A stretch of 64,000 bases of DNA from contig CAWCAG010000007.1 in assembly GCA_963793425.1 (NCBI GenBank), forward strand, positions 515,217-579,216, given 5' to 3'. The translations under genes were made by a program, and so were the position numbers. Within the stretch, counting starts at the first letter, position 1. Every line of letters starts with the position of its first letter. This document shows, one piece after another, positions 3,915 to 41,837 of this stretch. Source of the DNA: an uncultured cyanobacterium. GTDB lineage: Bacteria > Cyanobacteriota > Cyanobacteriia > Cyanobacteriales > CAWCAG01. The notes under the pieces are model-generated. The model was not told the origin of the DNA. It searched no databases and was given only the letters and a program-made list of their open reading frames with translations.

Positions 3915-4661
3915 ATGGAAATAATCAACTCAAAAATACAGTCCATCCTCAAGCTAGAGGGCTTGAGTTTAGCTACATATGTGGGAAATGTTTATTTATT
4001 ACAAGATATCTTTTTTACTGTTTATCCTGGGGAATTTATTGGTATTGTTGGTGCTTCGGGGGCGGGAAAAACTTCTCTTTTACGCTTAATTAATCGTCTT
4101 GGAGAAGCGACTTCTGGCGCAATTTTTTTTGAAGGGAAAACAATTAAGCAAATACCCATTCAGAAATTACGCCAACAAATAGTTCTCGTCTCTCAAGAGC
4201 CTAAACTATTAGGAATGAAGGTAGAAGAAGCCCTAGCTTATCCTCTAAGGCTTAGAAAAATTTCTTCCCAAGAAATCTCCTCTCAAGTAAATAAATGGCT
4301 GGATAAATTAAAGATTAATCCAGATTGGTTAGAGCGCAATGAACTACAACTTTCTACTGGACAAAAACAACTTATTGCTATTGCTCGTGGTTTAATTATA
4401 GAACCCAAAGTTTTATTATTAGATGAACCAACTTCAGCTTTAGATATAGAACAAACAGAGCATTTACTAAAGGTTCTTAGGGAATTAACCACCGAAAAGA
4501 AAACCACCATAATCATGGTTAATCATCAACTGGAGTTGATTAAAAGATTTTGTCAACGCATCCTTTACCTAAAACAGGGAAAATTACAGCAAGATGCTCT
4601 AAGCAAAGAAGTTAATTGGTTGCAATTAGAAAAAAGTCTGAAAGAAGCAGAATTATACTAA
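3915..4661 (+). CDS. ABC transporter ATP-binding protein
   Basis: Walker A GASGAGKTS, ABC signature LSTGQKQ, Walker B LLLDEPTSALD. Confidence 0.9.
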   Translation: MEIINSKIQSILKLEGLSLATYVGNVYLLQDIFFTVYPGEFIGIVGASGAGKTSLLRLINRLGEATSGAIFFEGKTIKQIPIQKLRQQIVLVSQEPKLLGMKVEEALAYPLRLRKISSQEISSQVNKWLDKLKINPDWLERNELQLSTGQKQLIAIARGLIIEPKVLLLDEPTSALDIEQTEHLLKVLRELTTEKKTTIIMVNHQLELIKRFCQRILYLKQGKLQQDALSKEVNWLQLEKSLKEAELY

Positions 4662-4907
4662 ATCCGATGTATAAAAGCCAATAATGAATTAAACATAAGT
4701 TAACCAAACGATAATTCGTTACTGGTGTTTCTATTTTGTTTGTACACAACTTTTTAGGGATAATACTTCAAACAATTTTCAAGTTGAGAATATTCACCTG
4801 CTGCATTTTTTTGTAAGCTACAGTATCAATTGTCGTCATTTCTGTTCTTTTAGCAGATAGTATTTCGTACTCAAATATCTCAGCAACAACGTAAAACTGT
4901 TCTCTTT

Positions 4908-6056
4908 CTATGGCCAAACTTGTTTACCTTGTTTGTCAATGTAAACATACTCGCCTTCTAAGGTAGAGTGCCATAATGTGTTCTCAAAATTATTTACATA
5001 ATCTAAACGGGCCGGTACAACCATTTGGCCAGTCTTATCAATAAGTCCCCACTTACTATTAGATTTTACAGGGGCCAATCCGTTAGTAAATTCTTCCGCT
5101 ATTTGAAACTGTGATTCGATAGCTATTTTTCCTGTTTCGTCAATATAACCCATCTTATTATTTAGTTTTATGGGAGCTAAACCTTCAGCAAATTTTCCTG
5201 CAAACTCAAATTGAGGAGAAATAGCCCACTTACCTTTCGAGTTAATAAATCCCCATTTTCCTTTACTCTCAGCAGCAGCCAAACCTTCTGAAAAACTGCT
5301 TGTCCATCCTAACCAAGGACGGACTACCCATTTTCCTTTTTTGTTGATGAAGCCCCAGCCACCATATTTAACAGCAGCTACTCCTTCTGAAAATGATTCT
5401 GCTGCCTCAAATTTAGCTTTGCTTACTTGTCTACCTTCGTTATCAACAAAACCCACTAAATTATTTTGGAAAAACTTAGCTCGTCCTTCTGAAAATTGGG
5501 CTACAGATTCATACTGTGGTGATACTATAAATTCACCAGTTTTGTTAATGAAACCCCACTTGCCATCTTTTTGAGCAGCAGCTAAACCTTCTGAAAAGTT
5601 ATTAAGTTGAGCAAATTGATTCTTGACTACCAATGTTTCCTGATGGTCGATAGCTCCCCAAAGATTATCTATTTTGACTAACGCTAGTCCTTCCACAAAA
5701 GGTCTAACTTCAGCAAATTGAGGGCTAATAACTACTTTACCTTTTGTGTTAACAAAACCCCATTTACCTTCTATTTTTACAGCAGCAAGTCCTTCAGAGA
5801 AGGTAGTAGCATCAGCAAATTGAAGAGGAATCATTATCTGACCTGAGTTGTCAATATAACCATATTTGCCCTGTTCATTGACAAGATATCTTTCTTCGGA
5901 CATATTACTAAGCTCTGAGGAAGAAATTGTTACAGAATTCAATTTATTAGAGTTACTTGAGACTAGTTGGGGAACCTGGCAACTGCTAAGGATAAAACTA
6001 ATAGTAATAGTTATCCAGAAGTGGATTGTAATTTCTTTAATAATTGATCTGCTCAT
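4908..6056 (-). CDS. WG-repeat lipoprotein (candidate immunity protein for the upstream toxin)
   Basis: 382 aa. Lipobox ILSSC. About ten tandem repeats of the form KWGFINxxGxxVIxPQFxxxxxFSEGLAAV. Start lies 34 nt downstream of toxin gene 6091-7413 on the same strand. Confidence 0.85.
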   Translation of the reverse strand: MSRSIIKEITIHFWITITISFILSSCQVPQLVSSNSNKLNSVTISSSELSNMSEERYLVNEQGKYGYIDNSGQIMIPLQFADATTFSEGLAAVKIEGKWGFVNTKGKVVISPQFAEVRPFVEGLALVKIDNLWGAIDHQETLVVKNQFAQLNNFSEGLAAAQKDGKWGFINKTGEFIVSPQYESVAQFSEGRAKFFQNNLVGFVDNEGRQVSKAKFEAAESFSEGVAAVKYGGWGFINKKGKWVVRPWLGWTSSFSEGLAAAESKGKWGFINSKGKWAISPQFEFAGKFAEGLAPIKLNNKMGYIDETGKIAIESQFQIAEEFTNGLAPVKSNSKWGLIDKTGQMVVPARLDYVNNFENTLWHSTLEGEYVYIDKQGKQVWP

Positions 6057-6090
6057 CTAGCTTCTAAATCAGAATGTTTTTTTGAAGACA

Positions 6091-7413
6091 TTAAGACTCA
6101 TTCTTAATGGTAATTCTGCCTACACTTCTTGAATCTTTTCTAGATTGGATTAAATAAGCCCATATTTGTTCCCAATGTTCTGTATTAACAACTGTGACAC
6201 AACCTTGGCTCACCATACCTGGATGTAGATAGCGATCTCCACTATTACCGATACGGAACCAAGTTGTGGCGTAGTTACCATATGCGGCTCCAAGACTATG
6301 TTGATAGTCAGGAATTTCTAGATCGTATGTACCTGAAGGAATAGGATTGGTAGCATCCATATGTGCGCTTATGGGACCGAAGCTACCAAAATTAAACTGA
6401 CCATTCCACACATTTCCAAAATCCTTGACTTTTGTCCAAGTTACCTGAGCTGAACTATTAGGATTGAGGTAATGACCCAATTGGTCTGTGCTTACCTTTG
6501 CTTTTTTGTCTTTATAATACCCTTCGTGAATTTTAATCCTTCTTACGTCTCCTTCGTTAGTTAATAGGGTAACTTTGAGAGTATGTGGAAGTTCTACAGG
6601 CTCTCCAGGGATATGGAAAGGACCAAGATAACCACTTTTTAAATCAGCCCATCCTGGGTGCTGTGGAGCTACAATACGACGATACGTACCTCCTCTAGCA
6701 ATCAATTGCTCTTCATTTCCCCTAGAAGCTGCTTGCTCAGATTGCGAATCTTCCTTTTTAGCAACAAAGCTGTTGTTATCTGGAATGGATGAAGTGTTCT
6801 TTTGATAGTCTTTTAATAAAGGCTGAACAGACTCTCCAGCAGCTACCTTAGCCCCCACAGCATCAGCCTCCACCTCATACTTATCTCCCACCTTGCCCAT
6901 CTCCCCCGCAAGTTGTACCTTACCGGATTGTTGCTGGACAACATGAGTTCCTTCATGGGCAGCTAACTCAACGCTAGGAGGCTTTTGGAAAGCAATCTTG
7001 TTCCCCATTGTATAAGCCTGCGCCCCCAATTGCTTACTCGCTGCTGTTGCTGGGCCACCGATATAAGCTTGGACATGGGATAAATCTTGTCCAAATGACC
7101 TTTGAATTCTATCTAAATGGGGTAACGCTACAGGGGAACCTGTAAAACCTGTAGCAGCAATCTGGGTGGGAGAATGATTAGCTTCTTCACCTCCACATTT
7201 GGCACATTTAGCTTGTACCTGTAAACCAGAACACATATTATCCCACATGGCCTTTTCACCGGCTATTTGCTGTTGCGTTGATGACTTCTTTTGAACTACA
7301 GGATTAGGAGTAGCTTTTTGTTGTACAGGTTGAAAGTGAGGGGCAGAATTAATAGTTGGCTTTGGTACAGGAGGAATAAAAGAGCTAGATTTTTGGACAA
7401 GTTTGTGACTCAT
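6091..7413 (-). CDS. polymorphic toxin A: DUF4157 (HExxH) N-terminal domain + L,D-transpeptidase/Tlde1-like C-terminal domain
   Basis: 440 aa. DUF4157-like stretch LDRIQRSFGQDLSHVQAY...GAQAYTMGNKIAF...AAHEGTHVVQQ (HExxH encoded at 6943-6957). C-terminus GTYDLEI...TTWFRIG...DRYLHPGMVSQGCVTV (Cys codon at 6199-6201) fits the His...Ser-x-Gly-Cys pattern of YkuD/DUF2778-type folds. Confidence 0.75.
   Translation of the reverse strand: MSHKLVQKSSSFIPPVPKPTINSAPHFQPVQQKATPNPVVQKKSSTQQQIAGEKAMWDNMCSGLQVQAKCAKCGGEEANHSPTQIAATGFTGSPVALPHLDRIQRSFGQDLSHVQAYIGGPATAASKQLGAQAYTMGNKIAFQKPPSVELAAHEGTHVVQQQSGKVQLAGEMGKVGDKYEVEADAVGAKVAAGESVQPLLKDYQKNTSSIPDNNSFVAKKEDSQSEQAASRGNEEQLIARGGTYRRIVAPQHPGWADLKSGYLGPFHIPGEPVELPHTLKVTLLTNEGDVRRIKIHEGYYKDKKAKVSTDQLGHYLNPNSSAQVTWTKVKDFGNVWNGQFNFGSFGPISAHMDATNPIPSGTYDLEIPDYQHSLGAAYGNYATTWFRIGNSGDRYLHPGMVSQGCVTVVNTEHWEQIWAYLIQSRKDSRSVGRITIKNES
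7084..7413. repeat. copy 1 of a duplicated 330-bp toxin 5' module (codons 1-110)
   Basis: Near-identical to 8556-8885. I count 7 amino-acid substitutions in 110 codons. Homology ends exactly after codon 110 (FGQD). Confidence 0.9.
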
Positions 7414-7452
7414 GGTTAGTGACGGAAGGAAGATAATTTGAGTAGAAAACAG

Positions 7453-7494
7453 TGCTTCTTAAACATTGCTTCTTAAACATTGCTTCTCAAACAT
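7453..7494. repeat. three tandem 14-bp direct repeats (TGCTTCTTAAACAT x2, TGCTTCTCAAACAT) upstream of toxin A
   Basis: Read directly from the sequence. They sit in the 137-bp gap between 7551-7946 and the toxin A start codon. Confidence 0.85.
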
Positions 7495-7550
7495 TCTGTT
7501 ACGGAAACATCTTTTAAAATGAGTTCCAATGTGAACTTTCGTCAAAATAA

Positions 7551-7946
7551 CTAAAGACCGATTAATCCTGTTGAAACAGAAACATTGACAACTTTGCCTT
7601 CTTGATGATCAATTGCCACTAACCATCTTCTTGAAACAAGCAATGCTTTGCTAAGCAACAGTTTGCTAAAGTCACAATGAAGAAAATCTTTCTCCTCAGT
7701 AGTTCCAAAAGTTTCATCTTGGAGATATCTACACTTAAAGCGATTTTCCTCCATTACTTTTTTTGCTTGGAAAACAGGACTACCCACCGAAATATGAGCT
7801 AGAATCTCTTTTTCCATCAAGCGTGGATCTTCATAAAACTTGATTTTGTTTACCATTGATTTACTCGCAAAGTTAAAAGCAACGTACACAATGATTCCTA
7901 CTAGGAAAAGAAGTAAAAAGTTTAGTGGTTTTTGATATATATTCAT
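7551..7946 (-). CDS. small membrane-anchored protein (candidate immunity protein for toxin B)
   Basis: 131 aa. One N-terminal TM helix (LNFLLLFLVGIIVYVAFNF) plus a domain of about 100 aa. Start lies 9 nt downstream of toxin B on the same strand. Confidence 0.5.
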   Translation of the reverse strand: MNIYQKPLNFLLLFLVGIIVYVAFNFASKSMVNKIKFYEDPRLMEKEILAHISVGSPVFQAKKVMEENRFKCRYLQDETFGTTEEKDFLHCDFSKLLLSKALLVSRRWLVAIDHQEGKVVNVSVSTGLIGL

Positions 7947-7955
7947 GTTGTTGAG

Positions 7956-8885
7956 CTAAATTTTCATTTTCCAACCAGGGGCCCATACAGGTGGAGAAGG
8001 ATTACCTAAATCAGCATCTCGTATACCTTGATGAGCTACAGAGTTACTGTTGGGACCTAATGGAAAATAACGAAGTTTTTGGGCTGCAATTCGACGCATT
8101 GTACCCACTAAGCTATCCCTGTATCTATTACAGGCTTTAAAATCCAAGTTAGTTGCTGCTTTAATTGTGCCACTGATATTTCTTCCCCAATCTACAGAAC
8201 TAGAATCATATTGCCCATAGCTAGTGACTAAGTATCCCCAAAAACCTTGATCCGTTCCACTAGAGTTGCTTGAATCAGTACGACTTACATCACTGGCAGT
8301 ACCACCAGTGCTACCACTACCGCTACTACCGCTAACACCTCCATTTGCACTCGGTCCACCGCGAAAAATTGTTTCTCTTGCAGATTCGATAGGTTTACCT
8401 TGCTCATCTACAGCTACTGGATCTGAAACTATAATGAAACCATGATTACCTACCCCAAAATCTACTCCGTAGTAGCGAAGCTCAACTTTACCTGGCCGAG
8501 TAAAAGATTTGGCAAGTTGTATTGTTGAGGCTCGGTCACTTTCTACTTTAGCTGAATCTTGTCCAAATGACCTTTGAATTCTATCTAAATGAGGTAACGC
8601 TAAAGGGGAACCTGTAAAACCTGTAGCAGCAATCTGGGTGGGAGAATGATTAGCTTCTTCACCTCCACATTTGGCACATTTAGCTTGTACCTGTAAACCA
8701 GAACGCATATTATCCCACATTGCCTTTTCACCGGCTACTTGCTGTTGCGTTGATGACTTCTTTTGAACAACCGGATTAGGACTAGCTTTTTGTTGTACAG
8801 GTTGAAAATGGGGAGCGGAACTAATCGTTGGCTTTGGTACAGGAGGAAGAAAAGAACTAGATTTTTGGACAAGTTGGTGACTCAT
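7956..8885 (-). CDS. polymorphic toxin B: same 110-aa N-terminal module as toxin A, unrelated C-terminus, no HExxH
   Basis: 309 aa. Residues 1-110 are about 94% identical to toxin A. It then diverges (SAKVESDRAS...), with a Gly/Ser-rich linker and a C-terminal region ending ...YFPLGPNSNSVAHQGIRDADLG... that I could not assign to a family. Confidence 0.7.
   Translation of the reverse strand: MSHQLVQKSSSFLPPVPKPTISSAPHFQPVQQKASPNPVVQKKSSTQQQVAGEKAMWDNMRSGLQVQAKCAKCGGEEANHSPTQIAATGFTGSPLALPHLDRIQRSFGQDSAKVESDRASTIQLAKSFTRPGKVELRYYGVDFGVGNHGFIIVSDPVAVDEQGKPIESARETIFRGGPSANGGVSGSSGSGSTGGTASDVSRTDSSNSSGTDQGFWGYLVTSYGQYDSSSVDWGRNISGTIKAATNLDFKACNRYRDSLVGTMRRIAAQKLRYFPLGPNSNSVAHQGIRDADLGNPSPPVWAPGWKMKI
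8556..8885. repeat. copy 2 of the duplicated 330-bp toxin 5' module
   Basis: See 7084-7413. Partial similarity continues a few nt into the 5' UTR/RBS. Confidence 0.9.
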
Positions 8886-8929
8886 AATTAGTCAGGGAAG
8901 AACGCTACATTATCGTACTTTGTGCCGGG

Positions 8930-9035
8930 ATGTCTCTTTCTCCTCGTTTATCTGACCTAATCTATCAAGCTAGTGAAGAACAATCTACCTATATAACCTT
9001 CAATTTAGCCCTAAAAACTTTTCCTCAACCTTTAT
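8930..9035 (+). pseudogene. AAA+ ATPase (Afp15/Pvc15-like), N-terminal fragment cut off by IS insertion
   Basis: ATG at 8930. The reading frame MSLSPRLSDLIYQASEEQSTYITFNLALKTFPQPL runs into the IS left end. Joining 9035 to 10376 continues the ORF in frame. Confidence 0.65.
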
Positions 9036-10375
9036 CAAAACGAAAAAAAGGTTTAAAACCCCGCCGTTTTAGGGCGGATTCGTTGATTTTTTCAGGTACA
9101 ATAAACATAATTTGCCAATAGCAACTGTTGCAACCAACATGAAAGCTAGATACAGATACAGATTTTACCCAACGAAGGAGCAGAAACACTCATTTGCTCA
9201 ACTATTTGGCTGTATCCGCGTCGTCTGGAATGATGCTCTGGCACAATGCAAAAGTGAAGGCAAAGCATTAAGCTACAACAAACTATCTAGCCTGTTAACC
9301 ATAGCCAAGAAGACAGAAGAAAGGATTTGGCTAAGGGATGTATCAGCAGTCCCCTTACAACAAACTTTAAGAAACTTAGCCGCAGCCTATAAAAACTTTT
9401 TCGACTCGTGCCGTGGTAAAAGGAAAGGTAAAAAAGTCTTACCACCAAGATTCAAAAAGCGGAGTAATCAACAAAGTGCAGCATTTACAAAATCAGCCTT
9501 CTCAATGGAAGGGCAACAAGTCTGCCTAACGAAAATTGGCAACATTACACCTATACTCTCAAGAGAACTTCCCTCAACTCCCACCTCTCTAACAGTAATC
9601 AAAGGTAGTGCGGATAGATACTTCATAAGCTTCGTAGTTGAAATACAACCACAAAACTTACCTAAGTGCCAATCAAGCATAGGAATAGACTTAGGAATAA
9701 CCGACTTTGCCACATTCAGTAATGGAGAGAAAATCAAAGCCCCAAAACCCTTAAAAAAGAAACTAAAGAAGCTCAGAAAACTACAACGTAACCTTGCCAG
9801 AAAGACGAAAGGTAGTAAGAGACGAGAATTAGCTAGAAGGAGAGTAGCCAAGCTTAACGCCAAGATAAAAGACACCAGAACAGATTTTCTACATAAGCTA
9901 TCAACTAAGATAATTCGTGAAAACCAAACGATAATCTTAGAAGATTTAAACGTATCGGGAATGCTCCGAAACCGTAAGTTATCCCGTGCAATTAGTGATT
10001 TAGGTTGGCGTAGTTTCAGAACTATGTTAGAAGCCAAATCAGTAATGTATGGCAGAGAATTTAGGGTAATAGATAGATGGGAACCCACATCACAGAGATG
10101 TCATGAGTGTGGTTTTAGAGGCGGCAAGCAGGAACTCTCTATTAGAGAATGGACTTGCTTAAACTGCGGTGCAGTTCACGATAGAGACGTTAATGCCGCC
10201 ATAAATATCAAAGTCGCGGGGGGACACTCTGAGACGATAAACGGACGTGGAGGGAAGCGTAAGACTACAACCGTAGCAGCACCCAAAGAAACGTCAACCC
10301 ACTTAAAACCTGTTCAACTTTCGTTGTTTGGGTAGATGAGGAATCCCCGTCTCTTTAGAGCGGGGAGGATGTCAA
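9036..10375 (+). mobile_element. IS200/IS605-family, tnpB-only (IS1341-type) element
   Basis: Boundaries were set by comparison with the second copy at 61148-61664. The shared sequence starts after TTTAT and ends ...GGATGTCAA. Subterminal hairpins: CCGCC-GTTTTAG-GGCGG near the left end and CCCCGTCTCT-TTAG-AGCGGGG near the right end. No tnpA gene. Confidence 0.85.
9139..10335 (+). CDS. tnpB: TnpB RNA-guided endonuclease (IS605 OrfB family)
   Basis: Probable ATG at 9139 ([12 protein letters not shown]). The ORF track extends to a TTG at 9112. RuvC motifs IGIDLGITDF, IILEDLNV and [11 protein letters not shown] are present, plus the zinc ribbon CHECG...CLNCG. Confidence 0.9.
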   Translation: MKARYRYRFYPTKEQKHSFAQLFGCIRVVWNDALAQCKSEGKALSYNKLSSLLTIAKKTEERIWLRDVSAVPLQQTLRNLAAAYKNFFDSCRGKRKGKKVLPPRFKKRSNQQSAAFTKSAFSMEGQQVCLTKIGNITPILSRELPSTPTSLTVIKGSADRYFISFVVEIQPQNLPKCQSSIGIDLGITDFATFSNGEKIKAPKPLKKKLKKLRKLQRNLARKTKGSKRRELARRRVAKLNAKIKDTRTDFLHKLSTKIIRENQTIILEDLNVSGMLRNRKLSRAISDLGWRSFRTMLEAKSVMYGREFRVIDRWEPTSQRCHECGFRGGKQELSIREWTCLNCGAVHDRDVNAAINIKVAGGHSETINGRGGKRKTTTVAAPKETSTHLKPVQLSLFG

Positions 10376-10395
10376 ACCATAGTCTTAATCCCCAT
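10180..10395 (+). ncRNA. predicted omega-RNA (scaffold over the tnpB 3' end and right end, plus a flank-derived guide)
   Basis: By analogy to characterised TnpB elements. The region is conserved in the deleted copy at 61.3-61.66 kb and contains the right-end hairpin. Exact 5' end and guide length are unknown. Confidence 0.4.
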
Positions 10396-12007
10396 GCCCC
10401 CTTACGTCACTGGCAAATTATCACTCCCATAGGTACAGACCCCCTGTTTTTACGTCCCTTAGCCTTAGATGAAACCATCTTCCACTACCTCTTAGGACAA
10501 CCTTGCCTTGACCCACAATTACAGGGTTTAGTCAAGCCTTTAACCCTGAAGCAAACAACCTTGCCCCCTTCCCACCAAGCCTTAGCAACCAGGTTAATCA
10601 CTGCCTGGTCTAGCCCTAACCCTCCGGTAGTACAATTAGTGGGTTCTGATTTTGCTGCTAAGGCTACTATTGCTGCTATTTCAACTCAACAGTTAGGCTT
10701 TTCTTTACTCACCATCCCTGCCCATCTCCTACCCCAAGAAACCACAGCATTACAAGAATTCTGCCAACGACTAGAAAGACAAACTATTTTGGGACGTAGC
10801 TTAGTTTTCCTCGATTGTCGTCAAATCTTAGAAAGTGATGGTTTAGCAGAGAAATTCTTTTCTCAATTAATTGAACAACTGCCTACTCCCTTCCTCATTA
10901 ACTCCCCAAAGCCCAAACAAATTTCTCAACCTTGCTTAATTCTGGAAGTTAACCCTCCCACTAAAGGGGAACAATTGCAACTTTGGCAAACTGCCTTGGG
11001 AGATGTGGCTACAAATTTAGAAACAGAATTGGCATCCTTGGCATATCAATATAATCTCGACCTCCCCACTATCCAAACCATCTGCACTCAAACTCTTACA
11101 GAATTGAACTTAAGTAACTCTCCTAGAGAATTACTCCCCAGCCTCCGACAAAACTGTCACCGTTTAGTTCGTCCAGCTTTACAAGGGTTAGCACAACACA
11201 TCGAAACCAAAGCAGATTGGGACAGATTTAATCCTGCCGGAAAAAGAAAAGAACATCCTTGAAGAAATTGTTGCCCAAGTTACTTACAGAAAAACTGTTA
11301 GTGCCGACTGGGGCTGGGCAGGGAAAGGGCAACGGGGACAGGCAATGGTGGCAGTCTTCGCTGGGGCAAGTGGTACAGGAAAAACTATGGCAGCAGAGTT
11401 GATTGGAAAGAGGACAGGTTTGGATGTTTATCGTATTGATTTGGCTGCTGTGGTGAGTAAGTATATAGGGGAAACGGAAAAACATCTGGGTCAAATTTTT
11501 GATGGTGCAGAAAGGGGAGGAGCAATTTTACTTTTTGACGAGGGGGATGCTCTGTTTGGTAAGCGTACTGAAGTAAAAGATAGTCGCGATCGCTATGCTA
11601 ATTTGAGTGTTAGTTATTTGTTGCAACGTTTGGAAGCTTACGGTGGATTAGCTATTATTACTACTAATTGGGAAGAATCTTTGGATAAAGCTTTTAAACG
11701 GCGTTTTCGCCATATTGTTCAGTTTCCCATGCCAGATAAAGAGACCAGGAAGCTACTTTGGCAAAGGATTTTTCCTCAAGCGACACCAACCCATCAGTTA
11801 AACTTTACGGAGTTAGCAAAGATGCACATTAGCGGTGGTCATATTCGCTCCATTGCTCTTAATGCCTGCTTCCTCGCTGTCAAAATAGGACAACCAGTGA
11901 CTATGAAGCAAGTGGCGATCGCTGCCCGTGGAGAGTACATAAAGCTAGATTTGGGAAATATGGATAGTTTTACTCAGCGTTGGTTAAAAGAAGCGGAGTT
12001 AAGTTAA
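10376..12007 (+). pseudogene. AAA+ ATPase (Afp15/Pvc15-like), main body with a 1-nt frameshift
   Basis: Degenerate first AAA-like region (VVQLVGSDFAAKATIAAI), then an intact module: Walker A GASGTGKTMAAE, Walker B LLFDEGDALFGKR, DRYANLSVSYLLQRLE, ITTNWEESLDKAFKRRF. The frame switches at the T-run 11227-11229. Removing one T gives ...DWDRLILPEKEKNILEEIV... The ATG at 10336 (MRNPRLFRAGRMS) lies inside the IS right end and is an artefact. Confidence 0.75.
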
Positions 12008-12084
12008 TTAAAACCTACTCCCTTAAAAAATAACTAAATTTTCTTTGCAAATCGAAAAAACAGTAATACAATCATTATTCATAA

Positions 12085-13557
<1,473 letters not shown>

Positions 13558-25256: not shown

Positions 25257-27554
25257 ATGGCTAAGCGATCGCTTAAAGCATCCCCAGAAGGTATTATTAG
25301 AGCCAAGAAAGCTTTTCAAAGAAAGGGCTGGACTCAGGAGTATCTAGCCGCCGAGGTTGGTTTATCTACTCGTCAGTCCATTTGGAAGTTTTTTACCGGA
25401 AGACCAATTGAGAGGCATCTTTTTGTGGATATTTGCTTTCAATTGGATCTTGAATGGCAATCTATCGCTGATTTACCTCCAGATGTAGAGCCTTTACCTG
25501 CCGCCACGGGGTTAGATAATCATGCCGGAGTAGAAAATTGGGTGGTGACTTTGCGCTCCCAAACTAAGGAGCAAATTCAAGCTCAATGCGGTATTTTGCA
25601 GTCATCTTTTGATATGACTCAACCTTTATTACTAGATTCTATTTATACTAATGTTAACATTTTGCCCCATCTTACTAATCAAAGATGGTTAGAAGTTTCA
25701 GATTTGCAAGATTCTCGCCCAGAGGTGGAACGCCCTCGGTTAACCTCAATAAATCAGCAGGTAGTTGCAGGTATTCAAGCCGCTACCGATAGTGCTAAGT
25801 TAATGATTTTGGGTAAACCTGGGGCTGGCAAAACTACCTTTTTACAGTATTTAGCGATTCAATGCAGCAAAGGTGAATATAAGGGTGATTGCATACCGAT
25901 TTTTATCCAGCTACGCAATTTTGTAGCTCAAACTAAAGAAGAAGAAGATTTTAGTCTTACAAATTATATTGCTCGAAGTTGGAGTAGTTATCAAGTTACT
26001 CAAGAACAAGTAGAAATTCTTTTGCAAAAAGGTAAGCTTTTAGTACTTTTAGATGGATTAGATGAAGTTCCCAAAGAATATAGTCAACAAGTTTTAAAAG
26101 AAATAGACCTTTTCGCTAATAACTACTATCAAAATCAAGTTATTATCACTTGCCGTATTGCTGCCCAACAATATTATTTTCGAGGATTTAATTATGTAGA
26201 AATTGCTGACTTTGATTCTAGCCAAATTAGAACTTTTGCCCAGAAATGGTTTGTTGCCAATTCTGGTGGTTCTGAAGAAGCAGGAATTCTTTTAACCAAG
26301 AAGTTTTTTGAACAGTTAGAATGCCGAGAAAATCAACCAATCAGAGAATTAGTTGCTACGCCTATTTTATTGAGCTTAATCTGCTCTGTATTCCAAGAAA
26401 GAGCTACTTTTCCGACTAAACGTTCTAAACTTTATCAAGCAGGTTTAGATATTCTGTTGGTACGTTGGGACCAAGCAAGGGGAATTCAAAGGGATCAAGC
26501 TTACCGTAACTTATCTTTAGCGGATAAAATCAAGCTTCTTAGTCAGATTGCGGCTATAAATTTTGAGCGAGGTAGTTTCTTTTTTGAAAAGAGTGAAATA
26601 CTCGATATTATTAGCAATCATTTAGCTAAATTACCTAATCATAAGCCAGATCCAGAAACTTTATGGTTAGATAGCGAGGCAATCCTCACAGCCATTGAAT
26701 TACAACATGGTTTATTGGTAGAAAGAGCTAGAGACATTTATTCTTTTTCTCATTTAACTTTTCAAGAATATCTTACTGCCAGAAAAATAGTTGCTAGTAC
26801 TGATAAAGAAGTATTAGAAGAGTCTTTAAATATGCTTGCTAGCCATGCTACTAATCCACAATGGCAAGAAGTTATTTTATTGACTTCGAGTATGTTACCG
26901 AATGCAGATTTTCTTTTGCAACTAATTAAAAAAGAGATTGATAAAATTTTCAAGGGTAAAGAAGAGCTGAGAAAATTTCTTAGCTGCCTCAATCAAAAAG
27001 TTAATAGCTTAGATGTCTCTTACCATTTAGGGGCAGTAAGAGCTTTTTATTTTACTCTTTTTCAAGATAGAGACTTGAATTTAGCTTTATCTTTAGACCC
27101 CAGTTTAGCTTCTGATTTGTCTCCAGATTTAGCTTTAGATTTAGCTTTAGCTCGCGCTTTTCGTATCAGCTTAATTTTAATCAAAAGCCCAGACCTGAAA
27201 AATATCATCAATTTAGGCTTTGCTTTAGATTTAGAGCGCAATTTCAACTTAGAGAAACCATTGCAGCAAGCCCTAGAAAAACTCAAACAAGAACTACCAG
27301 ATTTAGAAATAGGTAAAGAGAAACTTCAATCTTGGTGGCATAGTTATGGTGCAGAATGGGTGAGCAAATTTAGAGCTTTACTAATTGAATACAGACAAAT
27401 TGGTTATGAATGGCAGTTTACTCTTCAACAAGAACAATTACTGCGAAAATACTATGATAGTAACAAATTTATGATTAAGTGCCTGCAAAGCGATTGTCAA
27501 GTTAGTGGTGATCTGCGCCAAAAGATAGAAGATACAACTTTAAATCTCCCCTAA
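25257..27554 (+). CDS. STAND NTPase: N-terminal HTH-like domain + NACHT + helical C-terminal repeats
   Basis: 765 aa. XRE-like GWTQEYLAAEVGLSTRQSIWKFF. Walker A GKPGAGKTTFLQYLA, Walker B LLVLLDGLDEV. C-terminal LALDLALDLALARAF-type low-complexity helical region. Confidence 0.85.
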   Translation: MAKRSLKASPEGIIRAKKAFQRKGWTQEYLAAEVGLSTRQSIWKFFTGRPIERHLFVDICFQLDLEWQSIADLPPDVEPLPAATGLDNHAGVENWVVTLRSQTKEQIQAQCGILQSSFDMTQPLLLDSIYTNVNILPHLTNQRWLEVSDLQDSRPEVERPRLTSINQQVVAGIQAATDSAKLMILGKPGAGKTTFLQYLAIQCSKGEYKGDCIPIFIQLRNFVAQTKEEEDFSLTNYIARSWSSYQVTQEQVEILLQKGKLLVLLDGLDEVPKEYSQQVLKEIDLFANNYYQNQVIITCRIAAQQYYFRGFNYVEIADFDSSQIRTFAQKWFVANSGGSEEAGILLTKKFFEQLECRENQPIRELVATPILLSLICSVFQERATFPTKRSKLYQAGLDILLVRWDQARGIQRDQAYRNLSLADKIKLLSQIAAINFERGSFFFEKSEILDIISNHLAKLPNHKPDPETLWLDSEAILTAIELQHGLLVERARDIYSFSHLTFQEYLTARKIVASTDKEVLEESLNMLASHATNPQWQEVILLTSSMLPNADFLLQLIKKEIDKIFKGKEELRKFLSCLNQKVNSLDVSYHLGAVRAFYFTLFQDRDLNLALSLDPSLASDLSPDLALDLALARAFRISLILIKSPDLKNIINLGFALDLERNFNLEKPLQQALEKLKQELPDLEIGKEKLQSWWHSYGAEWVSKFRALLIEYRQIGYEWQFTLQQEQLLRKYYDSNKFMIKCLQSDCQVSGDLRQKIEDTTLNLP

Positions 27555-40295: not shown

Positions 40296-41216
40296 ATGAC
40301 ACTGTACGATAATTTTATTGAACAGTTAATGCAACAGCCTGAACTGAATGTAGCTGAGGAAATTTGTAAGCTGGTTGAAAATAAGATTGAGGTGGGCGAT
40401 CGCCTTAAGTTCCAACAAGTAGATAAACTCAAAGAATGGTTGGATAGCTTTCGCCCTTTTTCTCCAATTCTTGTGGCAGAATTGAAAAAAATTTATGATG
40501 TTCAATTTACTTACAATTCCAACGCTATTGAAGGTAATACTTTAACCCAAAGTGAAACAGAATTAGTCTTATCAAAAGGAATTACTATTGGTGGGAAAAC
40601 CTTACAAGAACATTTAGAAGTTGTAGGACATCAAGATGCTATTAATTATATTGAAACCTTAGCGAGAAAAGATAGTCTTGTGGGAGAGTGGGAAATAAAG
40701 CAAATTCATAATTTAATTTTAAGAGCGATCGCTCCTGAAGAAGCAGGCAAGTACAGACAACTTGATGTTAAAGCAGCAGGAACTAGTTATGTTTATCCCG
40801 CTCATTATTTGTTACCACAGTTAATGACAGAATTTGTTAGCTGGCTGAATTCAGAAGCAAAACAAACATTGCATCCTATTGAGTATGCAACCCTAGCTCA
40901 TTTTCGCTTTGTTTCTATTCACCCTTTTCGAGATGGTAATGGCAGAACGGCAAGATTATTAATGAATCTTCTTTTACTGCAAACTGGATATCCTGTTGTA
41001 GTTATTTCTAATCAAATTCGTCATGAATATATTAATGCGGTTGCCCATGGACAACAAAATAAACAGGATATTAAGCTACTTTTAAATATCATTCTTGATG
41101 CCACCTATAAATCTTTGGTAGAAACTTTAACAATTGTGGCAACTGCCAGAGATAGTAGAGGTAAAGGAGAGAATTTTCATGAAGAAATGATAGGCTTTCT
41201 AAAGGTAAGAAATTAA
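40296..41216 (+). CDS. Fic family protein (class II, in-cis inhibitory helix)
   Basis: Active-site motif HPFRDGNGRTARLL. Upstream SNAIEGN fits the (S/T)xxxE(G/N) inhibitory motif. Confidence 0.9.
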   Translation: MTLYDNFIEQLMQQPELNVAEEICKLVENKIEVGDRLKFQQVDKLKEWLDSFRPFSPILVAELKKIYDVQFTYNSNAIEGNTLTQSETELVLSKGITIGGKTLQEHLEVVGHQDAINYIETLARKDSLVGEWEIKQIHNLILRAIAPEEAGKYRQLDVKAAGTSYVYPAHYLLPQLMTEFVSWLNSEAKQTLHPIEYATLAHFRFVSIHPFRDGNGRTARLLMNLLLLQTGYPVVVISNQIRHEYINAVAHGQQNKQDIKLLLNIILDATYKSLVETLTIVATARDSRGKGENFHEEMIGFLKVRN

Positions 41217-41246
41217 GTTTTGAAAAGCTGATTACCGAGTTTAATA

Positions 41247-41837
41247 ATGAAACTAACTTTATCAATTATGAAAGGAAAACCACTTTTACTTTTACTCGGA
41301 TTACTAACCCTTAGTAGCATTAATGTACCTGCATTAAGTCAAGCCAACCCCACCGCAGGAATTCAACGCCCTGTATTACGAATAGGAAGCCAGGGAGACT
41401 ACGTATCTCAAGTACAAGCGGCCCTAAAATTATTGGGTTACTACACCGGAGAAGTTAGTGGGATTTATAATGAAAGCACCGTAATTGCTGTTTCTCGCTT
41501 TCAAGAAGCTGCTAAACTGAATGTTGATGGTATTGTTGGTTTAGCGACTTGGATAAGCCTCTTTCCTGTCACTCCGCCCCAAAATAGCACAGCTACAATT
41601 CCTAGCAATAACCCAACTGCCACAGCCACCACTTTACCGATTTTAAGGGAAGGGATGCAGGGAGAAGCCGTAGTCAAATTGCAAAAAAGATTGATAGCAC
41701 TAGGTTTACTCTCAGGAAGTGCCGATGGCTCTTTTGGACAACAAACTTTAGCTGCTGTTCAAGCGGCCCAAGCAAGTTTTAATTTAGCAGTAGATGGGGT
41801 TGTGGGGGCGGCAACTTGGAGAGCATTATTAAAATAA
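41247..41837 (+). CDS. secreted protein with two peptidoglycan-binding (PG_binding_1-like) domains
   Basis: 196 aa. Signal peptide, then two repeats of the form G..V..LQ..L..LGYY.G..DG.FG..T..AV..FQ. Confidence 0.8.
   Translation: MKLTLSIMKGKPLLLLLGLLTLSSINVPALSQANPTAGIQRPVLRIGSQGDYVSQVQAALKLLGYYTGEVSGIYNESTVIAVSRFQEAAKLNVDGIVGLATWISLFPVTPPQNSTATIPSNNPTATATTLPILREGMQGEAVVKLQKRLIALGLLSGSADGSFGQQTLAAVQAAQASFNLAVDGVVGAATWRALLK

Follow-up and report, generated by a model that had tools for sequence, protein, structure and literature searches.

Two toxin genes with a common 5' repeat

The 64-kb stretch of cyanobacterial DNA analysed here (from contig CAWCAG010000007.1; called the window below) contains two toxin genes on the minus strand, ToxA (6091-7413, 440 residues) and ToxB (7956-8885, 309 residues), as defined from open reading frames (ORFs) and their translations. 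Together with the genes around them, they occupy the segment from 4.9 to 12.0 kb. We read this part of a cyanobacterial chromosome as a probable island of effector genes that belong to a phage-tail-like contractile injection system (CIS). In this island, a remnant gene for a cargo-loading AAA+ ATPase would face away from two antibacterial effector-immunity pairs.

Codons 1-110 of the two genes (7084-7413 in ToxA and 8556-8885 in ToxB, both minus) share 94% amino acid and 95% nucleotide identity. The preliminary description of this DNA had called these codons near-identical, with 7 amino acid changes, and had seen the similarity reach partly into the ribosome-binding site region, and the alignment bears out both statements. 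The 17 nucleotide differences are made up of 10 synonymous and 7 non-synonymous ones (K4Q, I13L, N22S, T35S, I50V, C61R and V95L), while 5' of the ATG the two genes are alike over only about 15-18 nt (13/17 positions identical, from about -1 to -17). When the genes are compared in 30-nt bins, 25-30 of 30 positions are identical up to nt 330 and 7-11 of 30 from nt 331 onwards; the similarity stops exactly after the residues FGQD. The 300-nt core of this direct repeat (7083-7382 and 8555-8854) is the sole long repeat in 4500-12200. The same toxin-gene junctions are present in two further assemblies, L001 from ENA and L002 from NCBI (GCA_049671325.1). An assembly chimera as the source of the arrangement is ruled out, since the junctions agree across the three assemblies.

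The repeated codons encode a leader with a high content of S, Q, P and A. They end in a conserved 26-residue stub (IAATGFTGSPLALPHLDRIQRSFGQD in ToxB), located at 8556-8633 in ToxB and at 7084-7161 in ToxA. Residues 69-73 of the leader form a KCAKC motif (7195-7209 and 8667-8681), which is not conserved in the family: the homologues in Coleofasciculus carry KDAHGE or KDAHCE at this place. Therefore, judging from the alignment, the leader cysteines are unlikely to be essential.

Behind the leader, ToxA continues with a complete DUF4157 domain, a helical extension and a C-terminal toxin. The Pfam family PF13699 (eCIS_core, formerly DUF4157) matches residues 101-164 with an E-value of 3e-15 and 56.5 bits against a cutoff of 22; the whole match spans 6922-7113 and includes HExxH at residue 153 (6943-6957). 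The DUF4157 core with its extension (residues 111-204; 6802-7083, minus) is kept in all homologues and absent from ToxB, and tblastn searches with the leader and with the core returned two leader copies and one DUF4157 core in the window. The C-terminal domain (6133-6363, minus) is tentatively Tlde1-like. PF10908 matches residues 351-427 with an E-value of 1e-3 and 19.8 bits, which is under the family cutoff of 30.1, and the domain holds LHPGMVSQGCVTV (HPG..S.GC), a sequence resembling the His...Gly-Cys motif of L,D-transpeptidases. The orthologue in Coleofasciculus (Tox1 of locus L011), which has the same architecture, gives no PF10908 match at E<0.01, and these matches make a Tlde1 identity only suggestive. 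The exact ToxA protein has no database record, and a sequence search of the PDB with ToxA returned no match.

The gene that follows ToxA (4908-6056, minus) encodes a 382-residue protein with a lipoprotein-like N-terminus and nine WG repeats (PF14903). The pairing of toxin and WG-repeat gene is also kept in Coleofasciculus L011, and the WG-repeat protein is a candidate for the immunity protein that goes with ToxA. A tandem repeat at 7447-7495, with 3.5 copies of the 14-nt unit AAACATTGCTTCTT, lies in the spacer of 137 nt upstream of ToxA; in the cyanobacterial relative L004, a different 22-nt direct repeat is located in the intergenic region upstream of the toxin gene. Both repeats may be binding sites of a regulator.

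ToxB consists of the leader (residues 1-96), a DUF4157 stub (97-110), a 20-residue linker and a toxin domain of the Rhs type (131-309). It has no Pfam match even at E<=10 and no HExxH, so by its domains ToxB is not a DUF4157 effector. The Pfam and motif searches thus confirm the earlier claim that ToxA keeps DUF4157 with its HExxH and ToxB lacks it, and they place the breakpoint inside DUF4157, as had been proposed, at about profile position 17/79 of the Pfam model. We also considered residues 111-137 of ToxB as a degenerate half of DUF4157 and rejected this: no profile matches them, and the last seven of them, 131-137, match the beginning of the toxin domain carried by Rhs proteins. A weak BLAST extension of the similarity to residues 137-143 is backed by no profile. 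Neither toxin and neither of the immunity candidates matched a family in NCBIfam. An identical ToxB protein occurs in the two other assemblies, and NCBI assigns the ToxB protein to a 'Spirulinaceae cyanobacterium' metagenome-assembled genome (MAG). The ToxB leader has a ratio of non-synonymous to synonymous substitution rates (dN/dS) of 0.18, which indicates purifying selection.

The C-terminal domain of ToxB (7956-8495, minus) has 13 homologues. Most of them lie just behind the autoproteolysis motif DPxGL of Rhs proteins (among them P0008, P0009, P0011, P0012, P0014 and P0016), and the others are small secreted-type proteins. Because most homologues directly follow DPxGL, the sequence comparison identifies the C-terminus of ToxB as a genuine polymorphic-toxin domain for which Pfam has no model. 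The invariant residues of the domain (H148, R175-G-G-P178, D232 and N279-S280-N281) are all kept in ToxB, and all homologues have a long Gly/Ser-rich insert, which in ToxB is a disordered loop at residues 181-213. The AlphaFold2 model of the domain, which is confident outside this loop, has a predicted local distance difference test (pLDDT) score of 80 and a predicted template modelling score of 0.75, and it places H148 in a strand and N279-S280-N281 at the start of a helix. In the model of full-length ToxB, computed from a shallow alignment, nearly all of residues 1-124, including the stub, have a pLDDT of <50, while the C-terminal domain is confident. Fold comparison gave only weak matches, to CLN5 and to the Aichi virus 2A protein, both of which have permuted folds of the NlpC/P60 type. 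We tentatively suggest a permuted NlpC/P60 (LRAT-like) fold from this model. The His and the Asn-Ser-Asn of the ToxB domain recall the H-box and NC motif of LRAT-like enzymes, but Ser replaces the Cys.

Directly downstream of ToxB, a gene at 7551-7946 (minus) encodes a 131-residue protein with an N-terminal membrane anchor. In a second genome, the locus L003 (contig_15155 of MAG MFD03250.bin.1.52) has homologues of this gene behind every ToxB-type cassette, and the comparison with the L003 copy gives a dN/dS of 0.23. By its position the 131-residue protein is the candidate immunity protein of ToxB. The 110-residue gene product encoded behind one of the Rhs-borne domains of the ToxB type has no similarity to it. 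Since both immunity candidates have membrane or lipoprotein N-termini, we infer that the targets of the toxins are periplasmic.

The disrupted ATPase gene

Beyond the start of ToxB, tblastn and blastn comparisons with the intact 652-residue ATPase of L004 reveal a plus-strand remnant of a AAA+ ATPase gene, of which about codons 68-112 are found at 8900-9034. An element of the IS200/IS605 family follows at 9035-10375 (plus), with a TnpB ORF at 9112-10335 that has OrfB_IS605, Cas12f1-like TNB and HTH domains; relative to L004 9368/9370, the element is a clean insertion at about ATPase codon 112. A GC-rich hairpin, ccccgccgttttagggcgg, lies near the left end of the element at about 9060-9080 and matched no Rfam family. 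The rest of the ATPase gene (codons 113-652) extends over 10376-11999 (plus) and is split into the ORFs 10336-11262 and 11345-12007 by a 1-nt frame shift near 11224. This frame shift is not present in L001, a contig which itself has indels, and it may be either real or an assembly error.

The 5' end of the ATPase gene is also lost. When compared with L004, 481 bp are deleted (L004 9505-9985 have no counterpart), comprising ATPase codons 1-67 and the whole divergent intergenic and promoter region. Position 8900 of the window is at the same time the end of the ATPase homology and the start of the toxin-gene homology, at position -15 of ToxB. As the deletion removes the divergent intergenic region, ToxB is left without its native promoter region.

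The ATPase itself has generic AAA+ matches only in NCBIfam, and a PDB sequence search with it found only AAA proteins of the Cdc48/VCP type. A divergently adjacent AAA+ ATPase gene (WHD and AAA domains) is present in every cyanobacterial relative (L004, L005, L006 and L009-L013), and it is intact in L004, L005 and L009-L013. From its context, the protein is probably an ATPase of the Afp15/Pvc15/Alg15 type.

Such damage suggests another explanation of ToxB, namely that it is a dead by-product, a silent and decaying chimera left behind by the deletion in an island that is non-functional as a whole. The deletion ending right at position -15 of ToxB, the insertion and possible frame shift in the ATPase gene and the failure to find a convincing promoter are all consistent with this, and the sister locus L003 likewise consists of truncated cassettes and a 5'-truncated ATPase gene. 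On the other hand, the reading frames of ToxA, ToxB, the WG-repeat gene and the 131-residue gene are all intact, and ToxB, whose protein sequence does not differ among three assemblies, has lost none of the invariant residues of its toxin family. Also, the differences in the leader are mainly synonymous, by 10 to 7. We consider it unlikely that ToxB is such a relic.

Origin of the FGQD boundary

Protein P0002, encoded in L003, bears on the origin of ToxB. P0002 has a ToxA-type DUF4157 core with its extension, followed by a second stub (IATTGFTSFSTQLPHLDTVQQSLGQD), the same linker as in ToxB and a domain of the ToxB type; after the extension it reads SSSIATTGFTSFSTQLPHLDTVQQSLGQD, then VAKVESD...LAKSSTRPGKVELRYYG, and then the ToxB-type domain. 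In the 40 codons past the stub, ToxB and P0002 have 86% nucleotide identity, which falls to 72% inside the stub. There, ToxB has 97% nucleotide identity to ToxA. As P0002 has both the stub and the same junction, the ToxB cassette carries a diverged stub copy of its own.

From this comparison we propose how ToxB may have arisen. The cassette would have brought with it a diverged copy of the stub (IAATGFT...LPHLD..Q.S.GQD), and the 5' 345 nt of ToxB would then have been replaced from a ToxA-type gene, by exchange or by conversion. The tract would stop where ToxA and ToxB cease to be homologous, in the final bases of the stub, TCATT(T/A)GGACAAGAT. On these alignments, the simplest reading of the FGQD boundary is thus the endpoint of a recombination or gene conversion. 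The distribution of the differences between ToxA and ToxB, the majority of which lie within the first 183 nt, fits a conversion tract anchored at the end of the stub. A simple unequal crossing-over between stubs was also considered and discarded, for it does not yield the observed gene order. ToxB would appear to be a derived chimera, produced by a rare rearrangement specific to its lineage, at a locus undergoing both reshuffling and partial decay.

Reshuffling is also apparent in L003 itself. Between 8800 and 14000, this locus contains the 5'-truncated ATPase gene and an array of degraded cassettes: three 5'-truncated DUF4157 genes, in which the homology to ToxA begins at residues 93, 72 and 66, split fragments of another ToxB-like toxin, and at least 4 copies of the immunity-like gene. 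Among polymorphic toxin systems, Rhs and CdiA loci offer a known parallel in their orphan toxin-immunity cassettes, in which a retained conserved piece allows recombination with the full-length gene. Poole and co-workers in 2011 and Koskiniemi and co-workers in 2014 reportedly described such cassettes. The 5'-truncated cassettes of L003 resemble them in keeping a short conserved piece, and the ToxB cassette likewise has its stub. The difference is that the homology handle lies here upstream of the DUF4157 core, and recombination through it therefore deletes the core and not merely the toxin tip.

A further reading takes the stub (IAATGFT...LPHLDRIQRSFGQD) as a recombination handle that captures toxin cassettes directly behind the leader, skipping DUF4157, so that effectors with and without DUF4157 would share one loading signal. 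If this were true, the form without DUF4157 would either need no such domain or use that of ToxA in trans, for example as a chaperone or as a processing peptidase acting on the stub. We regard this general role of the stub as rather improbable.

It had also been proposed that C-terminal toxin domains are regularly exchanged at FGQD, with the 110-residue leader as the unit under selection and the DUF4157 core as an optional passenger. The intact ORF of ToxB and the dN/dS of its leader agree with this, as do the dispensability of DUF4157 for loading in AlgoCIS (a related system considered below) and the junction between stub and ToxB-type domain, which is common to two diverged cassettes. A word-index protein search with the leader alone returned nothing, but when 1.84 billion representative proteins were scanned in full with HMMER, there were ten matches, which are ToxA, ToxB, one spurious repeat protein, P0017, P0018, P0020, P0021, P0022, P0023 and P0024. 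All six homologues besides ToxA, ToxB and the partial P0021 keep the whole HExxH domain. Past FG.D these six read LSHVQA.IGG...AHE..H.VQQ, continue through the extension (...VGDKYE..ADAV...AG.S..PLL) and diverge only then.

The same picture emerges from genomic DNA. A survey of 185,579 species genomes (GTDB) found 30 loci in Coleofasciculus, Haliangium, Kofleriaceae and other Myxococcota, and in 30/30 of them HExxH follows 56-58 residues after LPHLD. Across all the DNA that was fetched there are 40 distinct stub-like sites, 37 of which keep HExxH; the three exceptions are the ToxB site, the stub inside P0002 and a copy of ToxA with a frame shift, which comes from an error-prone contig. Retention of HExxH, the outcome that the preliminary description had named as speaking against its own proposal, is thus essentially universal, with the caveat that the junction from the stub to the ToxB-type domain occurs again, in diverged form, in P0002.

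In Coleofasciculus, the ATPase gene is divergent from Tox1 (leader, DUF4157 and a ToxA-like C-terminus), which is followed by the WG-repeat gene, and Tox2 has the same leader and DUF4157 as Tox1 with an Ntox6 C-terminus, followed by lipoprotein genes. Paralogues of the same genome are alike to about residue 225 and diverge after ...AG.S..PLL..Y, near residues 200-225, into Ntox6, ToxA-like or serum-amyloid-A-like (SAA-like) C-termini. In one case (L013_10016) the divergence comes right after HExxH..QQQSG, with an SAA-like domain behind. This domain (PF00277, E about 1e-25) stands behind DUF4157 in L003 (12922-13749) and in L013 (10016-10993), where by its position it is apparently a toxin C-terminus of two cyanobacterial genomes. 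If we take the N-terminal region of the family as the leader with DUF4157, or as the DUF4157 core alone in 5'-truncated orphan cassettes, the C-termini found on it are Tlde1-like, ToxB-type, NlpC/P60-like, Ntox6, SAA-like and PG_binding-containing. A conserved N-terminus is thus combined with variable toxin C-termini, and the ToxB domain also occurs in Rhs delivery proteins, which supports the description of ToxA and ToxB as a polymorphic-toxin pair.

Selection does not single out the leader either. Between ToxA and its closest orthologue, P0017, the leader has a dN/dS of 0.126 and the core with its extension one of 0.118. On these ratios the leader and the DUF4157 core are equally constrained, and the claim that selection acts on the leader instead of the peptidase core is not supported. 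The orphans of L003 begin at three positions within the leader instead of at FGQD. The usual point of cassette exchange appears to lie behind DUF4157, with variable junctions, and FGQD would be used only in the ToxB-type cassette. A regular exchange at FGQD is largely refuted by this survey of homologues and is, in our view, decidedly improbable.

Contractile injection systems and a proposed role of the leader

The assignment of the island to a CIS draws on what is known of DUF4157 and of cargo loading. DUF4157 marks CIS effectors; it is the most CIS-specific accessory domain, with an odds ratio of 2614, and is typically N-terminal to toxins (PMC8213781). Effectors without DUF4157 often adjoin genes with it (PMC11297309). 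In AlgoCIS, the cargos Cgo1 and Cgo2 share a disordered N-terminal domain and DUF4157 and differ in their C-termini (PMC8894135). Loading needs the disordered domain but neither DUF4157 nor the C-terminus, and it is mediated by the AAA+ ATPase Alg15 (bioRxiv 10.64898/2026.05.27.728243). Effectors of the Photorhabdus virulence cassette (PVC) such as Pdp1 and Pnf have N-terminal signal peptides and involve the Pvc15 ATPase (PMC11495950; PMC10097599).

By analogy with the AlgoCIS and PVC work, the shared leader of about 95 residues, which is predicted to be disordered, would most likely be a system-specific loading sequence recognised by the ATPase, which would thread leader-bearing cargo into the CIS tube; a loading function of this N-terminal part is plausible. 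ToxA would then be the standard form, with leader, complete DUF4157, helical extension and Tlde1-like toxin and with the WG-repeat lipoprotein as its candidate immunity protein. ToxB would combine the leader and the first 14 residues of DUF4157 with the linker and an uncharacterised toxin domain shared with Rhs proteins. The earlier suggestion that the leader is a trafficking or loading signal separate from DUF4157 is therefore reasonable in view of its predicted disorder, its dN/dS of 0.13-0.18 and the divergent ATPase neighbour, but it is not new, as this was shown for Cgo1 and Cgo2. By this analogy, ToxB can reasonably be regarded as a natural example of a leader-targeted cargo without the DUF4157 core.

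Among the closest known systems are the AlgoCIS cargos of Algoriphagus machipongonensis, which are likewise paralogues with a common disordered N-terminus and different C-termini. There are several differences: ToxA and ToxB are encoded outside a CIS cluster, immunity genes are present, the local ATPase gene is damaged, ToxB naturally lacks the DUF4157 core, and the leaders show no sequence similarity to those of Cgo1 and Cgo2. The thylakoid-anchored CIS of Anabaena sp. PCC 7120 is also cyanobacterial and has two adjacent putative effectors with DUF4157, Alr3311 and Alr3312, both of which are contained in CIS preparations (PMC8894136). Their genes flank the structural cluster, however, and no paralogue without HExxH was described; the likeness to ToxA and ToxB is one of gene architecture. 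PVC effectors are loaded without DUF4157 through an N-terminal signal of about 50 residues and the AAA+ ATPase of the cluster, an architecture that ToxB now has; they are anti-eukaryotic, without immunity genes and unrelated in sequence.

We give a probability of about 0.62 to the reading that the locus is a CIS effector island with ToxB as a derived chimera and FGQD as a conversion endpoint. Several points weigh against it. The 64-kb window has no sheath, tube, baseplate or terminator gene, and no CIS structural gene was found within 10 kb of the annotated cyanobacterial relatives; linkage to a structural gene was seen only for the distant relative P0024, which adjoins a Pvc16_N tail-terminator gene. 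The local ATPase gene is truncated, split by the insertion sequence and possibly frame-shifted, and loading would need another copy. With its native upstream region lost, ToxB has one weak promoter-like match (9/12) upstream, a promoter scan of the region gave fewer promoter-like matches than shuffled sequence, and the expression of ToxB is uncertain. The order of descent is also ambiguous: a P0002-like gene may be the ancestor of ToxB, or ToxB that of a P0002-like gene. Finally, we infer rather than show that the two neighbouring proteins confer immunity, that the toxins act in the periplasm and that the C-terminus of ToxA is Tlde1-like. Our literature searches found no paper tying Coleofasciculus to a CIS.

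It is very improbable that the ATPase and the leader-DUF4157 toxins form a self-contained export or activation module of filamentous cyanobacteria that needs no contractile particle. They do stand by themselves amid housekeeping genes, both in the window and at eight cyanobacterial loci, but DUF4157 is highly CIS-specific, CIS-dependent DUF4157 effectors may be encoded far from the cluster, as in Halogeometricum (PMC11566945), P0024 adjoins Pvc16_N, and the module encodes no membrane channel component.

Around the effector island, the window is a Spirulinaceae-like cyanobacterial chromosome with psbB, thiC, hrcA and numerous GAF/PAS kinases. A thiamine pyrophosphate riboswitch upstream of thiC (RF00059, 71 bits, 12079-12175) marks where the island ends on the right. 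The contig L001 (ENA ERZ25039505 contig_27373, 7479 bp) is a circular permutation of window 4594-12075, spanning the WG-repeat gene, ToxA, the 131-residue gene, ToxB, TnpB and the ATPase gene. Its new junction links 12075, just before the riboswitch, to 4594, inside the 3' end of an ABC ATPase gene, with only 'AT' in common. The assembler may have created this junction, or the DNA may be tandemly duplicated or exist in a circular form. Two other regions may belong to conflict systems and are unrelated to the toxin pair, namely a STAND NTPase gene of the NACHT family (25257-27554) and a Fic/DOC gene followed by a gene for a protein with two peptidoglycan-binding domains (40296-41837).

In summary, the locus belongs to a known type of CIS effector locus and is real and mostly ordinary; its function in this genome is uncertain because the local ATPase and promoter are damaged. 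DUF4157 is the most widespread marker of CIS effectors, and the ToxA/ToxB pair agrees with the deletion experiments in AlgoCIS. The same leader with and without the DUF4157 core offers a convenient natural test of whether the domain is needed for cargo loading, stability or activity. Of further interest are the stub that comes with the ToxB cassette, the uncharacterised toxin domain that CIS effectors have in common with Rhs proteins, and the conserved module of divergent ATPase and effector array that in filamentous cyanobacteria is found apart from any structural cluster.

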